The position numbers and the translations under genes are program-made. A DNA stretch of 64,000 nt from positions 256,001 through 320,000 of the forward strand of contig CAVONQ010000018.1 in assembly GCA_963697335.1 (NCBI GenBank), read 5' to 3'. Numbering within the stretch: position 1 is the first letter of the stretch; the number at the start of each line of letters is the position of its first letter. The stretch is from an uncultured cyanobacterium (lineage in GTDB: Bacteria; Cyanobacteriota; Cyanobacteriia; PCC-6307; Cyanobiaceae). This document shows, in pieces, positions 25,941 to 52,657 of the stretch. Below the pieces are notes generated by a model. It saw only the letters and a program-made list of their open reading frames with translations, searched no databases and had not been told where the DNA came from.

Positions 25941-27320
25941 TTGGCAGCGCAGCTCCCCCGTCGCATCTGCTGCATCGGCGCGGGCTACGTGGGCGGTCCC
26001 ACCATGGCCGTGATCGCCGATCGCTGCCCCCAGCTCGACGTGACCGTGGTGGACCTCAACGCCGAGCGCATCGCCCTCTGGAACCACGCTGACCTCAGCC
26101 AGCTGCCGGTCTATGAGCCCGGCCTCGACGCCGTGGTGGCCCGCTGCCGCGGCCGCAATCTGCACTTCAGCACCGCCGTGGAGGAGGCCATCGCCGCCGC
26201 CGACATGGTTTTCCTCTCCGTCAACACCCCCACCAAGACCAGGGGGCTGGGCGCCGGCCAGGCCAGTGATCTCAAGTGGATCGAGGCCAGTGCCCGTACG
26301 GTGGCCAAGGCGGCCCGTGGCCACACGATCGTGGTGGAGAAGAGCACCCTGCCGGTGCGCACCGCCGAGGCCGTCAAGGCGATCCTCGGCTGCGCCGAGC
26401 CCGGCCAGAGCTTCGCGGTGCTCTCCAACCCCGAATTCCTCGCCGAGGGCACGGCCGTGGCCGATCTCGAGGCCCCTGATCGGGTGCTGATCGGCGGTGA
26501 GGCCCCCGAGGCCATCGAGGCCCTCGCCGCCATCTACGCCCACTGGGTGCCCCAGGAGCGCATCCTGCGCACCAACATCTGGAGCAGCGAACTCGGCAAG
26601 CTCGCCGCCAATGCCTTCCTCGCCCAGCGGGTCAGCTCGATCAACAGCATCGCCGCCTTCTGCGAGGCCAGCGGCGCCGACGTGAACGAGGTGGCCCGGG
26701 CCATCGGCAGCGACAGCCGCATCGGAGCCAAGTTCCTCAAGGCCGGCCCGGGCTTCGGGGGGAGCTGCTTCCAGAAGGACATCCTCAACCTGGTGTACCT
26801 CTGCCGCCACTACGGCCTCGAGGAGGTGGCCGGCTACTGGGAGCAGGTGGTGAGCCTCAACACCTGGCAGCAGCACCGCATCGCCCGCCTGGTGGTGCAA
26901 CGCCTGTTCGGCACCGTGACGGGCAAGCGCCTGGTGCTGCTCGGCTTTGCCTTCAAGGCCGACACCAACGACACCCGCGCCTCACCCGCCATCCAGATCG
27001 CCCGCGACCTGATCGAGGAGGGTGCCCAACTGCAGATCCTCGATCCCAAGGTGAGCCCGGCCCAGATCGAGGCCGACCTCGGCCAGCCCCCCGGCGAGGG
27101 CGAGGCCAGCTGGGCCCCCTGTGCCTCCCTGGAGCAGGGTGCTGCCGGGGCCGACGCCCTGCTGCTGCTCACCGAATGGCAGCAGTTCAGCCAGATCAAC
27201 TGGGCGGCCACAGCCGCCCTGATGCGCCGGCCCGCCTGGCTGTTTGATGCCCGCGGCAGCGCCGATCAGCAGGCCGCCCGCGCCGCCGGGCTCAGCGTCT
27301 GGCGCGTGGGGGAGGGTTGA
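25941..27320 (+). CDS. ugd: UDP-glucose 6-dehydrogenase
   Basis: [45 protein letters not shown]. Confidence 0.96.
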
Positions 27321-27324
27321 GTCG

Positions 27325-28275
<951 letters not shown>

Positions 28276-28279
<4 letters not shown>

Positions 28280-29355
28280 CCACGGCCGTACTGGTGACAG
28301 GAGCGGCTGGCTTCGTCGGCGAGGCGCTCTGCGAGCGCCTGCTGGCGCGGGGGGAGCAGGTGGTGGGCCTCGACAACCTGAATCCTTACTACGACCCCAG
28401 CCTGAAGCGGGCCCGCCTGGCGCGGCTTGAGCCGTTTGCCGCCTCGGGGGCCTGGCGCTTCGTGGCTGGGGCCATCGAGGACGCTGACCTTGTGAGCACC
28501 CTGTTCGAGCAGGAGCGCTTTGGCCGGGTGGTGCATCTGGCTGCCCAGGCCGGGGTGCGCTACTCGATCACCAACCCGGCGGCCTATATCGAGAGCAATA
28601 TGGTGGGTTTCTCCCGGGTGCTGGAGGCCTGCCGAGCCCAGCAGGTGACCCACCTGGTGTATGCCTCCAGCAGCTCGGTGTATGGCGGCAACACCCAGCT
28701 TCCCTTCACGGAATCCCAGCCGGTGAACCACCCGGTGAGCCTCTACGCCGCCACCAAGAAGGCCAATGAACTGATGGCCCACAGCTACAGCCATCTCTAC
28801 GGGCTGCCGGCCACGGGGCTGCGCCTGTTCACCGTGTACGGGCCCTGGGGACGGCCGGACATGGCGCCGATGCTGTTCGCCCGGGCGATCCTGGCCGGGG
28901 AGCCGATCCGGGTGTTCAACCACGGCGCCATGTGGCGCGACTTCACCTACATCGACGACATCGTGGAGGGGCTGGTGCGGTGCCTCGATCAACCCGCCAC
29001 GCCCGATCCGCAGTTCGATCCGGCCGCTCCCGATCCCGCCACCAGCTGGGCGCCGCACCGCCTGTTCAACCTGGGCAACAGTGAGCCGGTGGAGCTGCTG
29101 CGCTTCATCGGGGTGCTGGAGGCGGCGCTGGACCGCCGGGCCGTGCTCGATCTCCAGCCCATGCAGCCCGGCGACGTGCCGGCCACGGCGGCCGACACCT
29201 CCCGGTTGCAGGCCTGGGCGGGCTTCAGGCCTGCAACCAGCCTGGAGCAGGGAGTGGAGCGTTTCGCCCGCTGGTATCTGGATTATCACGGCTCCGGGCA
29301 GGCCCAGGACGCTGCAGTGCGGCTTCGCCAGGCAGACTCGGCTCCCTTCGCCTGA
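28276..29355 (+). CDS. UDP-glucuronate 4-epimerase (NAD-dependent epimerase)
   Basis: [55 protein letters not shown]. Confidence 0.92.
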
Positions 29356-29362
29356 ATCGGGA

Positions 29363-30646
29363 TTGGCTTCGCTGCAGAGCCTGCGCGGCATGGTGGATCT
29401 GCTGCCCGGGGCCACCGCCCTCTGGCAGCACGTGGAAGGTCGGGCCGCGGAGCACTTCCGCCGCGCCGCCATCCAGGAGATCCGCACGCCGCTGCTGGAG
29501 GTGACGGAGCTGTTCGCCCGCGGCATCGGTGAGGCCACCGACGTGGTGGGCAAGGAGATGTACTCCTTCGTGGATCGGGGCGAGCGCAGCTGCACCCTGC
29601 GGCCCGAGGGCACGGCGTCGGTGGTGCGGGCCGTGCTGCAGCACGGGCTGCTCAGCCAGGGGCCCCAGCGGCTCTGGTACGGCGGGCCGATGTTCCGCTA
29701 CGAGCGCCCCCAGGCCGGCCGCCAGCGCCAGTTCCATCAGATCGGCCTGGAGCTGCTCGGCTTTGCCGAGCCCCGCGCCGATGTGGAGGCCATCGCGGTG
29801 GCCTGGGATCTGCTGGCTGACCTGGGGGTGGGAGGTCTGGCGCTCGAACTCAACAGCCTGGGCAGCCCGGAAGACCGCGCCGGCTACCGCCAGCGGCTGG
29901 TGGCCTGGCTGGAGGAGCGCCGTTCCCAGCTCGACCCCGAGTCCCAGGCTCGCCTCCAGACCAACCCCCTGCGGGTGCTGGATTCCAAGCACCCCGACAC
30001 CCAGGCGCTGCTGGCCGACGCGCCCAGCCTGCTGGAGAGCCTCTGCGGGGCCAGCCGCGAGCGCTTCGAGGCGGTGCAGGCCGGCCTGGCGGCGCTGGCC
30101 ATCCCGGTGCAGCTCAATCCCCGCCTGGTGCGGGGCCTCGACTACTACAGCCACACGGCCTTCGAGATCACCAGCGATCAGCTCGGGGCCCAGGCCACCG
30201 TCTGCGGTGGCGGCCGCTACGACGGCCTGGTGCAACAGCTGGGCGGCCCGGCCACACCGGCCATCGGCTGGGCGATGGGGATGGAGCGGCTGGTGCTGCT
30301 GCTCAGCCGCTCCGCCGCCGCGGGCCTGCCCAGCCAGCCGCCGCCGGATCTCTATGTGGTGAGTCGCGGCGCTGAGGCCGAAGCCCAGGCCCTGCCGCTG
30401 GCGCGGCTCTGCCGCCGGGCCGGGCTGGTGGTGGAGATCGATCCCAGCGGAGCCGCCTTCGCCAAGCAGTTCAAGCGGGCGGATCGCTCCGGCGCCGCCT
30501 GGGCTGCGGTGATCGGTGAGGAGGAGGCCAGCGCCGGCGTGGTGCTGCTGCGCGAGCTACGCCACAGAACAGCGGAGGCCGCCCCTGGCGCCAGCGCCGA
30601 TCAGCGGCTCACTCCCGAGCAGCTCGCGGCACTGCTGGCCCGATGA
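29363..30646 (+). CDS. hisS: Histidine--tRNA ligase
   Basis: [53 protein letters not shown]. Confidence 0.98.
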
Positions 30647-30738: not shown

Positions 30739-31569
30739 ATGGGTGACTCGACCCTCGCGATCATTGCCGGTGCCGGCGTGCTTCCCAGGATGCTCTCGCA
30801 GGCCCTGAGAGCTTCTGGGCGGCCTCACCTGGTCTGCCGCCCCCATGGCCTGGAGGTGGAGCTGGAGGACGCTGAGGAGTTCTACTTCGAGCGCTCGATC
30901 TCCTTCTTCCGCTCGCTCGAGAAGCGCGGCATCCGCCAGGTGGTGATGGTGGGCAAGTTCCACCGGCCCCGGGCCCTCAACATCATGCGGTTCGAGGGCT
31001 CCACCCTGATGGCGGCGCCGCGCATCCTGGCCTCGCTGCGCAAGGGCGACGACGCCTCCCTGCGTTCCCTGGCGGAGATCATCGAGGAGCTCGGGCTGGA
31101 GGTGGTGGGGGTGGAGGACGTGGCCCCCAATCTGTTGCCTGAGCCCGGCGTCTATGCCAGCCGCCTGCCCACGGAGATGGATCGGGCCGATGTGGAGCGC
31201 GCCGCCCAGATCGTGGAGGCGATTTCGATGGTGGATGTGGGCCAGGGCGCCGTGGTGGCGGGGGGCCTCTGCCTGGCCACCGAAGCCCTGCCGGGCACCG
31301 ACGCCATGCTCGAGTGGGTGGCCAGCAGCCGGGCGCTGCCGCCGGAGGCGCCCCGTTCCGGTGTGCTCTACAAGGCCCCCAAGCTGCAGCAGGACCGCCG
31401 CATGGACCTGCCAGCCATCGGCCCCACCACGGTGGCGAAGGCGGCGGCGGCCGGGCTCTCCGGCATCGCCTGGGAGGCCCGCGGCGCCCTGCTGCTCGAT
31501 GCCGAGCGCACCATGGCCGATGCCGAGCGTCTGGGGCTGTTCCTGTGGTCGCGCCAGCAGATCCGCTGA
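30739..31569 (+). CDS. lpxI: UDP-2,3-diacylglucosamine pyrophosphatase LpxI (DUF1009)
   Basis: IIAGAGVLP, GDDASL, DVGQGAVV, EALPGTDAML, KAPKLQQDRRMDLPAIGPTT. Confidence 0.9.
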   Translation: MGDSTLAIIAGAGVLPRMLSQALRASGRPHLVCRPHGLEVELEDAEEFYFERSISFFRSLEKRGIRQVVMVGKFHRPRALNIMRFEGSTLMAAPRILASLRKGDDASLRSLAEIIEELGLEVVGVEDVAPNLLPEPGVYASRLPTEMDRADVERAAQIVEAISMVDVGQGAVVAGGLCLATEALPGTDAMLEWVASSRALPPEAPRSGVLYKAPKLQQDRRMDLPAIGPTTVAKAAAAGLSGIAWEARGALLLDAERTMADAERLGLFLWSRQQIR

Positions 31570-31610: not shown

Positions 31611-32258
31611 TCAGGCCGCGCCGGCCCGCTCCAGCACCCCCTTGCTGCTGGGGATGGCGCCGGCGCGGCGCGGGTCGATCTCCGTGGCCAGCCGCAGCGC
31701 CCGGGCGAAGGCCTTGAAGCAGGCTTCCACGATGTGGTGCGAGTTGGAGCCCGCCAGCTGGCGGATGTGCAGGGTGAGGCCGGAGTTGTTCACCACCGCC
31801 ACGAAGAACTCCTTCACCAGTTCGGTGTCGTAGCTGCCGATCCGCTGGGCCGGGATCTCCAGGCCATAGCTGAGGTGGGGCCGGCCGGAGCAGTCGAGGG
31901 CCACCTGCACCAGGGCCTCGTCGAGGGGCGCCACGAAGTGGCCGAAGCGCTGGATGCCGCGCCGGTCCCCCAGGGCCTGGGCCAGGGCCTGGCCCACGGC
32001 GATGCCCACGTCCTCATTGGTGTGGTGATCATCGATGTGGGTGTCGCCGTCGGCGCTGATCTCCAGATCCAGCAGGCCATGGCTGGCCAGCTGGTGGAGC
32101 ATGTGGTCGAGGAAGGGCACGCCGGTGCTCACCTGGCAGAGGCCGCTGCCATCGAGGCCCAGCCGCACGCGCACGTCGGTTTCGCCGGTGAGCCGGTGCA
32201 CCGTGCCGCTGCGGCCGCCGCCGGGGCCATCGTGGTTGAGGTCCGGAAGGGAGGACAC
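31611..32258 (-). CDS. hisB: Imidazoleglycerol-phosphate dehydratase
   Basis: [43 protein letters not shown]; start approximate. Confidence 0.97.
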
Positions 32259-32344
32259 GGGCCAAAGGGGCGGGACTGTACCAATCATGCCGAAGTCGAT
32301 GACCGGTATCCGTCCACAATCACGCCCACCGCCCCAGCCGCCCC

Positions 32345-32965
32345 TTGACCAACTCTCCCCAGGTGGTGCTCGCCGAGCTGCGCGCGGGCCATCGGCGCTT
32401 CCTGGATGGTGAATCGCTCCATCCCCACAGCAGCCGCGAGCGCATGCTCGAGGTGGAATCGGGTCAGCACCCCACCGCGGCCGTGCTGGGCTGCGCCGAC
32501 TCGCGGGTGCCCGTGGAGCTGCTGTTCGACACGGGATTCGGCGACCTGTTCGTGGTGCGCAACGCCGGCACCCTCTCCACCACCGCCGCCATCGCCTCGC
32601 TGGAGTACGCCGTGGCCCATCTGGGCGTGCCGGTGATCGTGGTGCTGGGCCATGAACGCTGCGGCGCCGTGGAGGCGGCCCTGAACCCGGCGCTCACGCT
32701 CACACCGAGCCTGGCCCAGCTGGTGGGCCAGCTGCGCATGGAGCTGATCAACCTCGGCGGCCACCACGACCTGGATCAGGCCTCCCGCCACCACACCCTC
32801 AACGCCGCCCGCAACCTGGTGGATTCCAGCGTGCTGCTCACCGACCTGTTGCGCTCCGGCCGCCTCAGCGTGGAAGCGGCCTTCTACAACCTGCACACCA
32901 CCACGATCGACTGGATGGGGGCGGTGATGCCGATGCGCACGGAGCAGTTCCTCAGCACCCCCTGA
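32345..32965 (+). CDS. Beta-class carbonic anhydrase
   Basis: GQHP, CADSRVP, FVVRNAG, SLEYAV, GHERCGA (Cys/His/Cys Zn ligands). Confidence 0.93.
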
Positions 32966-51841: not shown

Positions 51842-52657
51842 ATGGCGGCTTCCGACCACCACTTCCTGCACCTGCCCGGCCACCATCTGCTCTACGGGCG
51901 TGTGCCCAAGGCGGCCAACAGCAGCGTCAAGGCGGCCCTCACCCGACTGATCAGGCCGGAGCTGCAGCGCAACCGCCGCAGCCTGGGCCAGCGGTTGCTG
52001 CGGGGACTGCGGCCCCAGCGCTCCTGGCAATCCCTCTCCTCCCAGGTGGACCAGTTCTGGGATCTGCTGCCCAACACGATCGCCCGCCCCGTGGACCGCG
52101 CCACGGCCAGGCAGCTGCGGGCGCACTGCTTCAGCTTCGCGGTGGTGCGCAACCCCTTTGATCGCCTGCTCTCGGCCTACAACAACAAGGTGATCGAAAA
52201 CCCCAGCTGCACGGCGCGGCTGCGGGCCATCGGCGTGGAGCGGGGCATGGCGCTGCCCCCCTTCATCGAGAGCATCTGCGCGGCGGAGTCGGCAGCCCTG
52301 GACGTGCATGTGCTCCCCCAGGCGGAGATCCTCTGCCTGGACAGGGAGCCCCTGCCCACCTGGGTGGCCTACGCCGAGAGCCTGGAGCTGCACTGGCCCT
52401 TTCTGGTGCAGCGGGCCCGCCGCGCCGGAGTGCCCGGTCTGATGCGGCAGCTGCCGGATAAGAACAGCCGGCGCCAGGGCCAGAGCACGGATCTCGAGCA
52501 ACTGCTGGCCCAACCGCAGCTGGTGCGCCTGCTGCGCCAGCGCTATGCCGACGACTTCAACATCTTCTACCCCTGGCTGGCCGAGGGGGAGCTGAGTGTG
52601 GCGCAGGTGCGGCAGGGTGGCCCGCGCCGACCGCGTCATTTCGTGCCGGCTCAGTAG
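51842..52657 (+). CDS. Sulfotransferase family 2 protein
   Basis: 5'-[14 protein letters not shown]; 3'-[22 protein letters not shown]. Confidence 0.85.

Follow-up and report, generated by a model that had tools for sequence, protein, structure and literature searches.

How does a cyanobacterium come to carry lpxI, the gene for an enzyme that makes lipid X? Cyanobacteria are the textbook example of a four-enzyme lipid A pathway, and they are not known to reach lipid X through LpxH, LpxI or LpxG. The question is raised by a stretch of 64,000 nucleotides from an uncultured member of the Cyanobiaceae (assembly GCA_963697335.1, contig CAVONQ010000018.1, positions 256,001 to 320,000 of the forward strand), referred to below as the window, in whose own numbering lpxI lies at 30739..31569 (+). 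With a probability of roughly four in five, we read this gene, on sequence evidence, as a working LpxI that was acquired by the common ancestor of two Cyanobium-group genera and acts in concert with a Raetz pathway back half that is itself foreign. The outer membrane lipid of this Cyanobium clade is probably built differently from that of other cyanobacteria.

The gene is an ATG-started open reading frame (ORF) that spans exactly 30739..31569 without an internal stop. Its product of 276 residues, a predicted uridine diphosphate (UDP)-2,3-diacylglucosamine pyrophosphatase of the lipid X-forming kind, matches two Pfam domain models over its full length, both above the cut-off of 25 bits that applies to each: LpxI_N (PF17930) at 75 bits, with residues 6-132 covering profile positions 2-129 of 129, and LpxI_C (PF06230) at 131.9 bits, with residues 136-270 covering positions 2-131 of 131. 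Upstream lies hisS, encoding histidyl-tRNA synthetase (29381..30646, +; Pfam tRNA-synt_His 2.6e-45, plus HGTP_anticodon); its listed ORF runs from 29081, although translation probably begins further in, and 29381 serves as a working start. Downstream, hisB (imidazoleglycerol-phosphate dehydratase; 31611..32288, -; Pfam IGPD 3e-65) converges on lpxI. The initial annotation had described an intact LpxI gene between hisS and hisB and had proposed a check by the N- and C-terminal domain models; the exact ORF, both domains and both flanks confirm that description. The same arrangement, hisS and lpxI in one direction with hisB facing them, is kept in 33 further loci, single-contig genomes among them: 12 of 12 loci from the two genera (L001-L012), the locus of one further LpxI-positive genome (L111 of G339) and 20 of 20 named Cyanobium-clade loci with flanks. 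This conservation points to one ancestral insertion. Contamination or a chimeric assembly was ruled out by this synteny in complete genomes and by the G+C content at third codon positions, which is 0.91 in lpxI and matches its neighbors (0.88 in hisS, 0.93 in hisB). A promoter and terminator scan near lpxI returned no sites, a result that is uninformative at ~70% GC. Among sequencing runs, a search listed six that share 0.24-0.26 of the sequence words and no RNA run, an outcome without bearing on expression.

We then asked how far the protein resembles LpxI enzymes of known function. The characterized founder of the family, LpxI of Caulobacter crescentus (PDB 4GGM; D225A mutant 4J6E), has the same two-domain layout over its whole length, and the 4GGM structure was matched at E 3e-37 across residues 6-269. 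The 4GGM and 4J6E sequences differ only at D225A, a position that aligns with D223 here. Eight contacts of the Caulobacter enzyme to UDP-diacylglucosamine are named in a review (Q169, T187, D188, K214, D225, T233, N74 and T228; PMC6286764), and six of the eight are kept in the window's protein: Q169, T187, D188, K214 (here K212), D225 (here D223, the catalytic aspartate) and T233 (here T231). None of the six varies across alignment A1, which combines Cyanobium-clade with Rhodobacterales proteins. The ratio of nonsynonymous to synonymous substitution rates was 0.018-0.194 in nine of nine pairwise comparisons with orthologues, and lpxI is therefore under purifying selection. Together, these results support the view that the window encodes a functional-looking LpxI with predicted lipid X-forming activity. 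It differs from the Caulobacter case in that the gene does not lie between lpxA and lpxB, that the host is a cyanobacterium and that the function is here a prediction from sequence. LpxH and LpxG act at the same pathway step (PMC4807358); their folds are unrelated to that of LpxI, and they attack the alpha phosphate, whereas LpxI attacks the beta phosphate.

The distribution of lpxI was assessed in two sets of genomes. A family sample of 251 genomes from 64 genera, comprising the window's own genome (G000; a 2.58-Mb draft in 18 contigs, 98.8% complete) and 250 others, underlies all family co-occurrence counts; a phylum sample comprises 300 other genomes, in which families f1-f30 (135 genomes) include the window's family and every family of the same class. 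In G000, the window's gene is the single LpxI_C match genome-wide. LpxI_C was found in 23 of the 251 family genomes, namely all 12 of the window's genus (g1, G000 included) and all 11 of a second genus (g172), and in none of the 228 genomes from the other 62 genera; in the phylum sample, it was found in none of the 135 genomes of f1-f30. A search of five genomes for LpxH gave no match. The claim that cyanobacteria are generally described as lacking LpxH and LpxI thus agrees with these counts and with Opiyo 2010 (PMC3087551), the available part of which gives cyanobacteria only lpxA, lpxC, lpxD and lpxB and a lipopolysaccharide (LPS) without Kdo (3-deoxy-D-manno-octulosonate), heptose or phosphate. 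Within the phylum sample, LpxI_C occurs in 125 of the 300 genomes, all in eight families of other classes, and LpxK has the same distribution. In those families (f31-f38; genomes of ~2 Mb), 125 of 165 genomes carry both, so that LpxI is widespread in the phylum beyond its photosynthetic class, though the protein there is of a very different lineage.

Had lpxI been common in cyanobacteria that lack lpxK and waaA, a link with the late pathway would have been hard to maintain; the reverse was found. Full-length LpxK occurs in 23 of the 251 family genomes, and these are the same 23 that carry LpxI; a 52-position LpxK fragment was additionally seen at a contig end of an 89%-complete genome. A strong WaaA match was obtained in 22 genomes, made up of 21 of the 23 LpxI-positive ones and one fragmentary genome of another genus. 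An LpxL-type acyltransferase was detected in 27, again the same 23 together with four weaker matches in long ORFs of genus g141. The co-occurrence of lpxI with lpxK and waaA that had been suggested as a check therefore holds across the family. LpxI is fixed in two Cyanobium-group genera and is not peculiar to this genome; the protein family is known and its host is unexpected. NCBI records already label orthologues "LpxI family protein" or "UDP-2,3-diacylglucosamine diphosphatase LpxI" (e.g., Cyanobium sp. PCC 7001, 95% identity). Full-text literature searches returned no paper on these orthologues.

The presumed partners of LpxI lie 25 kb downstream, in an operon at 56.9-62.9 kb of five genes, all on the plus strand with ends that overlap or abut. 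The first gene encodes a putative acyltransferase of the DUF374/lysophospholipid-acyltransferase-like type (56841..57596, +; Pfam DUF374 2.8e-22, Acyltransferase 6.1e-5; no match in the NCBIfam scan), which has the same position in G339. It is followed by waaA, for the Kdo transferase (57586..58923, +; Pfam Glycos_transf_N 1.1e-43), whose longest ORF runs from 57313, although either GTG at 57586 or TTG at 57613 would agree with where the profile starts and with an N-terminal hydrophobic helix; NCBIfam WaaA models score up to 238.6 bits, all under their equivalog cut-offs. Then come lpxK, for the tetraacyldisaccharide 4'-kinase (58920..60014, +; Pfam LpxK 2.8e-82), lpxB2, for a second lipid-A-disaccharide synthase (60005..61141, +; Pfam LpxB 7.7e-81), and a gene for an MsbA-like lipid A flippase, an ATP-binding cassette exporter (61138..62886, +; Pfam ABC_membrane and ABC_tran) whose best NCBIfam match is TIGR02203 MsbA_lipidA at 580.5 bits against a cut-off of 602. 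WaaA, LpxK, LpxB and the MsbA-like exporter were thus all recovered where they had been predicted.

The operon's LpxB is an extra copy. Two LpxB copies are present in the LpxI-positive genomes G000, G394 and G339, and one in the LpxI-negative genomes G303 and G282. In G000, the canonical lpxB1 sits on another contig (C7) in an intact cluster, bamA-lpxC-fabZ-lpxA-lpxB1, and its product is 36% identical to LpxB2. Since the operon brings its own second LpxB, LpxI belongs to an added branch rather than closing a gap in the native route. The route LpxI>LpxB>LpxK>WaaA>late acylation>MsbA, which the initial annotation regarded as completed by lpxI, is accordingly supported by the comparative evidence, but as an added branch and not as the completion of a native pathway. 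Its late acylation step holds in part: an acyltransferase gene is in the operon, but it is of the putative DUF374 type, and the LpxL-family gene sits outside the window on the same contig. Overall, the pathway genes identified in G000 are those for LpxA, LpxC, LpxB1, LpxI, LpxB2, LpxK, WaaA, the MsbA-like exporter, the LpxL family, KdsA and KdsC.

From these genes a working scheme can be proposed. The native lpxA and lpxC (with lpxD) would supply UDP-2,3-diacylglucosamine, part of which LpxI, as a metal-stimulated pyrophosphatase, would convert to lipid X and uridine monophosphate. LpxB2, native LpxB1 or both would condense lipid X with remaining UDP-2,3-diacylglucosamine, LpxK would phosphorylate the 4' position and WaaA would add Kdo. 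The acyltransferases, both the DUF374 protein of the operon and the LpxL-type protein encoded elsewhere on the contig, would finish the molecule, which MsbA would flip across the inner membrane. We infer the enzyme activity, the flow of intermediates and the arrival of the genes as one island that was later split. A more elaborate and distinctly tentative version holds that two lipid A lines run in parallel, one through native LpxB1 to a phosphate-poor, Kdo-free product and the other through imported LpxI, LpxB2, LpxK, WaaA, LpxL and MsbA to a phosphorylated Kdo-lipid A, the imported set having entered as a single island at the junction of hisB with the RPE65 gene and split later. Were this so, the outer leaflet would show two lipids of different chemistry, or the cell would alternate between them.

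We next considered where lpxI came from. Among 5.8 billion proteins, the closest LpxI sequences were those of the Cyanobium clade (78-99% identity), followed by Rhodobacterales (50-55%). The best 80 species-representative loci comprised 21 from the Cyanobium clade and 59 from Rhodobacterales (41-53% identity), in a search whose patterns were drawn from these two groups, so that other Alphaproteobacteria may be under-sampled. By comparison, LpxI of five members of the phylum's other classes was only 24-27% identical. A maximum likelihood tree of 102 rows (IQ-TREE quick search, LG+C20, support by the Shimodaira-Hasegawa-like approximate likelihood ratio test [SH-aLRT]; L043, L067, L077 and L099 left out as short or interrupted matches) recovered the 32 Cyanobium-clade rows as monophyletic (SH-aLRT 99). 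The clade is nested in Paracoccaceae via branches with support of 98, 95 and 95, with the caveat that the outgroup branch is long and the root therefore uncertain. The stem leading to it measures 0.59 + 0.48 substitutions per site. A branch of 2.97 substitutions lies between it and LpxI of the other classes, and the two cyanobacterial groups are clearly separate. Although it shares the Pfam family, the phylum and the company of LpxK, the LpxI of those classes (f31, f37) is thus on the far side of the tree and is not the source of Cyanobium lpxI. On this phylogeny, the gene is foreign, acquired from a Paracoccaceae-like alphaproteobacterium of the Rhodobacterales.

The nearest relatives outside the clade are accordingly the Paracoccaceae/Rhodobacterales proteins (e.g., of Cereibacter, Frigidibacter, Gemmobacter and Falsigemmobacter), from which the Cyanobium gene differs in its setting. 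In Rhodobacterales, lpxB starts right after lpxI in 59 of 59 loci, whereas Cyanobium lpxI stands alone between hisS and hisB, with the nearest lpxB 28 kb away and not Rhodobacterales-like; the detachment of lpxI in the Cyanobium clade is therefore derived. A metagenomic pair of sequences, P0042 and P0044, forms the sister group of the entire Cyanobium LpxI clade (SH-aLRT 99) and shares clade-specific motifs such as GKFHRP. This pair may represent a second recipient or a lineage closer to the donor. Two metagenome scans for a contig of its lineage gave no match; one of them returned 43 loci, the best at ~53% identity, and these led back to the Cyanobium clade.

The location of the two insertions carries a trace of their history. 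In four LpxI-negative genera (G282, G142, G210 and G303), fabI, hisB and the gene for an RPE65-family carotenoid oxygenase are contiguous on one strand. In both G000 and G339, a block that runs from hisB to ycf48 and psbEFLJ is collinear with G282, lpxI abuts hisB, and the RPE65 gene abuts msbA at the block's far end; in the window it occupies 62883..63998 (+; Pfam RPE65 8.4e-83) and runs off the edge. Since RPE65 lies beside hisB in the LpxI-negative genera, lpxI and the operon sit on the two halves of a broken ancestral junction. One island, with lpxI divergent from DUF374-waaA-lpxK-lpxB2-msbA, would then have entered between hisB and RPE65 and been split later by inversion, a history that we judge rather likelier than not from the gene orders. 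Its simplest form, a single inversion, was rejected, as the ancestral hisS-psbJ junction that it predicts was not seen; what stands is the weaker statement that the former RPE65|hisB junction has the two insertions at its flanks.

Several observations weigh against an imported LpxI working with a foreign back half. The hisS-psbJ junction was present in none of five LpxI-negative genomes, three of which have hisS followed by ugd. The partners do not share the donor signal of LpxI: LpxB2 is only 32-36% identical to Rhodobacterales LpxB (and 26-39% to all LpxB proteins from 40 genomes sampled across the phylum), WaaA is 27-28% identical to Rhodobacterales WaaA, and LpxK is 41-47% identical to Rhodobacterales LpxK and 29-36% to that of the other classes of Cyanobacteriota. 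The best 120 homologues listed for LpxB2 and for LpxK all belong to the Cyanobium clade; beyond it, an exhaustive representative search gave best LpxK matches of 44-49% identity, and an Atlas look-up of LpxB2 gave generic LpxB clusters only. The module is a mosaic, or its donor is unsampled. Two genomes of g1 (G509 and G522) carry LpxI and LpxK yet lack a WaaA N-domain match, and KdsA is not clade-specific, occurring in 110 of the 251 family genomes and in 29 of the 64 genera, all 23 LpxI-positive genomes included. In the G000 assembly, the LpxD N-domain was not found, although it is present in four relatives, and kdsB was not found by tblastn. Both absences are probably gaps in the draft: a 21-kb segment of G394 with lpxD corresponds to the interval between the ends of contigs C5 and C15 of G000, and near-identical G394 has two copies of kdsB in a region missing from G000 apart from a repeat with matches at contig ends. 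Two of the eight Caulobacter contacts differ (N74 to K, T228 to A), at positions that vary in Rhodobacterales too, and the NCBIfam LpxI equivalog NF047836 scores 192.2 bits, where the cut-off is 400. Three named Rhodobacterales LpxI proteins, those of Cereibacter and Frigidibacter among them, likewise score only 207-218 bits, and the cut-off thus does not separate true members. Finally, cyanobacteria that lack LpxI produce lipid A using LpxB but no known hydrolase, so that another native enzyme may make LpxI dispensable.

This last point is the core of the alternative that survives best, in which LpxI is active but redundant: the native UDP-diacylglucosamine hydrolase that would serve all other cyanobacteria would work here too, and LpxI would only boost flux or serve as a spare. 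The LpxI-negative relatives have LpxC, LpxB and LpxD while LpxH and LpxI were not found in them, the native lpxB1 cluster is intact in G000, and lipid A is reported from LpxI-negative cyanobacteria in the available part of Opiyo 2010. Redundancy fits poorly, however, with the retention of LpxI under purifying selection in all 23 LpxK-bearing genomes and in none without LpxK, which speaks for its being required in the added branch; moreover, the native lipid A is described there as lacking phosphate, and lipid X 1-phosphate may not be a product of the native route in the first place. We therefore regard redundancy as unlikely.

Less probable still, and by a good measure, is a hydrolase of the LpxI family whose substrate or role has shifted, acting for example on a different UDP-diacyl-aminosugar and not as a lipid X synthase. 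The long stem of the clade, the two altered ligand contacts, the score under the NF047836 cut-off and the separation of the gene from lpxA and lpxB, when lpxB follows lpxI in every Rhodobacterales locus, would all suit such a shift. Against it, the contacts to pyrophosphate and ribose and the catalytic one are all preserved, the canonical role predicts just such a tight co-occurrence with LpxK, LpxB2 and LpxL, and the equivalog cut-off is missed by the named Rhodobacterales proteins as well. That LpxI is instead an ancestral cyanobacterial gene, inherited vertically, kept in this clade only and lost elsewhere, draws on its frequency alongside LpxK in the eight other-class families, but it is largely refuted by the tree, which places the clade inside Paracoccaceae and the other classes across the 2.97-substitution branch, by the low identity of the other-class proteins (24-27% for LpxI, 29-36% for LpxK) and by the losses it needs in 62 of 64 sampled family genera and in all other sampled families, and we give it next to no weight.

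A working LpxI acquired together with a foreign back half would make this clade, which is abundant in fresh and brackish water, a natural exception among cyanobacteria, with a full classical lipid A pathway beside the native one. It lets one ask whether LpxI enables a cyanobacterium to make lipid A that is phosphorylated and linked to Kdo, what each of the two LpxB paralogues does, and whether the LPS structure of Cyanobium, and hence the sensing of this LPS by cells and phages, differs from that of marine Synechococcus, whose lipid A is reportedly free of phosphate and Kdo, and of Prochlorococcus. It would also be a clean example of a pathway module moved from Alphaproteobacteria into cyanobacteria and kept there under selection.

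Several further observations concern Kdo and the late genes. KdsA had been suggested as a member of the module by five genomes (3/3 against 0/2), a suggestion overturned by its family-wide occurrence. It scores above the curated cut-off in 106 of the 251 genomes, and 87 of the 110 matches are in genomes without LpxI, LpxK or WaaA; such cells would make Kdo for another purpose, which sits oddly with the description of cyanobacterial LPS as lacking Kdo. The two genomes without a WaaA match also carry LpxL; G522 is a single contig, and WaaA may have been lost or replaced in both. In G000, kdsA (C3:3724-4545) and kdsC lie beside transposase genes at the start of contig C3, where C3:226-2448 holds a fragment of an ISAs1-family transposase together with an IS110-family transposase of low GC (46-53%); a repeat in this region matches other contig ends of G000.

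The remaining genes of the window form an ordinary picocyanobacterial core (rplKAJL, pilNQ, ugd, fabI, chlD, ndhCKJ, ycf48 and psbEFLJ). Directly upstream of the operon, four ORFs of 82, 45, 39 and 66 residues at 56050..56789 (+) are presumably psbE, psbF, psbL and psbJ, names that we assigned from the sequences and with no profile match; ycf48 precedes them (Pfam PSII_BNR 1.5e-133). Between hisB and fabI, a beta-carbonic anhydrase gene (32345-32965, +) is shared with L003, L006, L028, L037 and L038 and is not at this position in other relatives, making it a variable insertion beside the lpxI site. Downstream of ugd, an ORF of 703 residues (27244-29355, +) contains two separate NAD-dependent epimerase/dehydratase domains (Pfam); a UDP-glucuronate decarboxylase-like protein may here be fused to an epimerase, or two genes may be read through, and G339 gives two separate matches. 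A Sulfotransfer_2 gene (51842-52657, +) lies between cofD and ndhJ; since these two genes are separated by a gap of only ~20 nucleotides in G282 and G339, it is a lineage-specific insertion.

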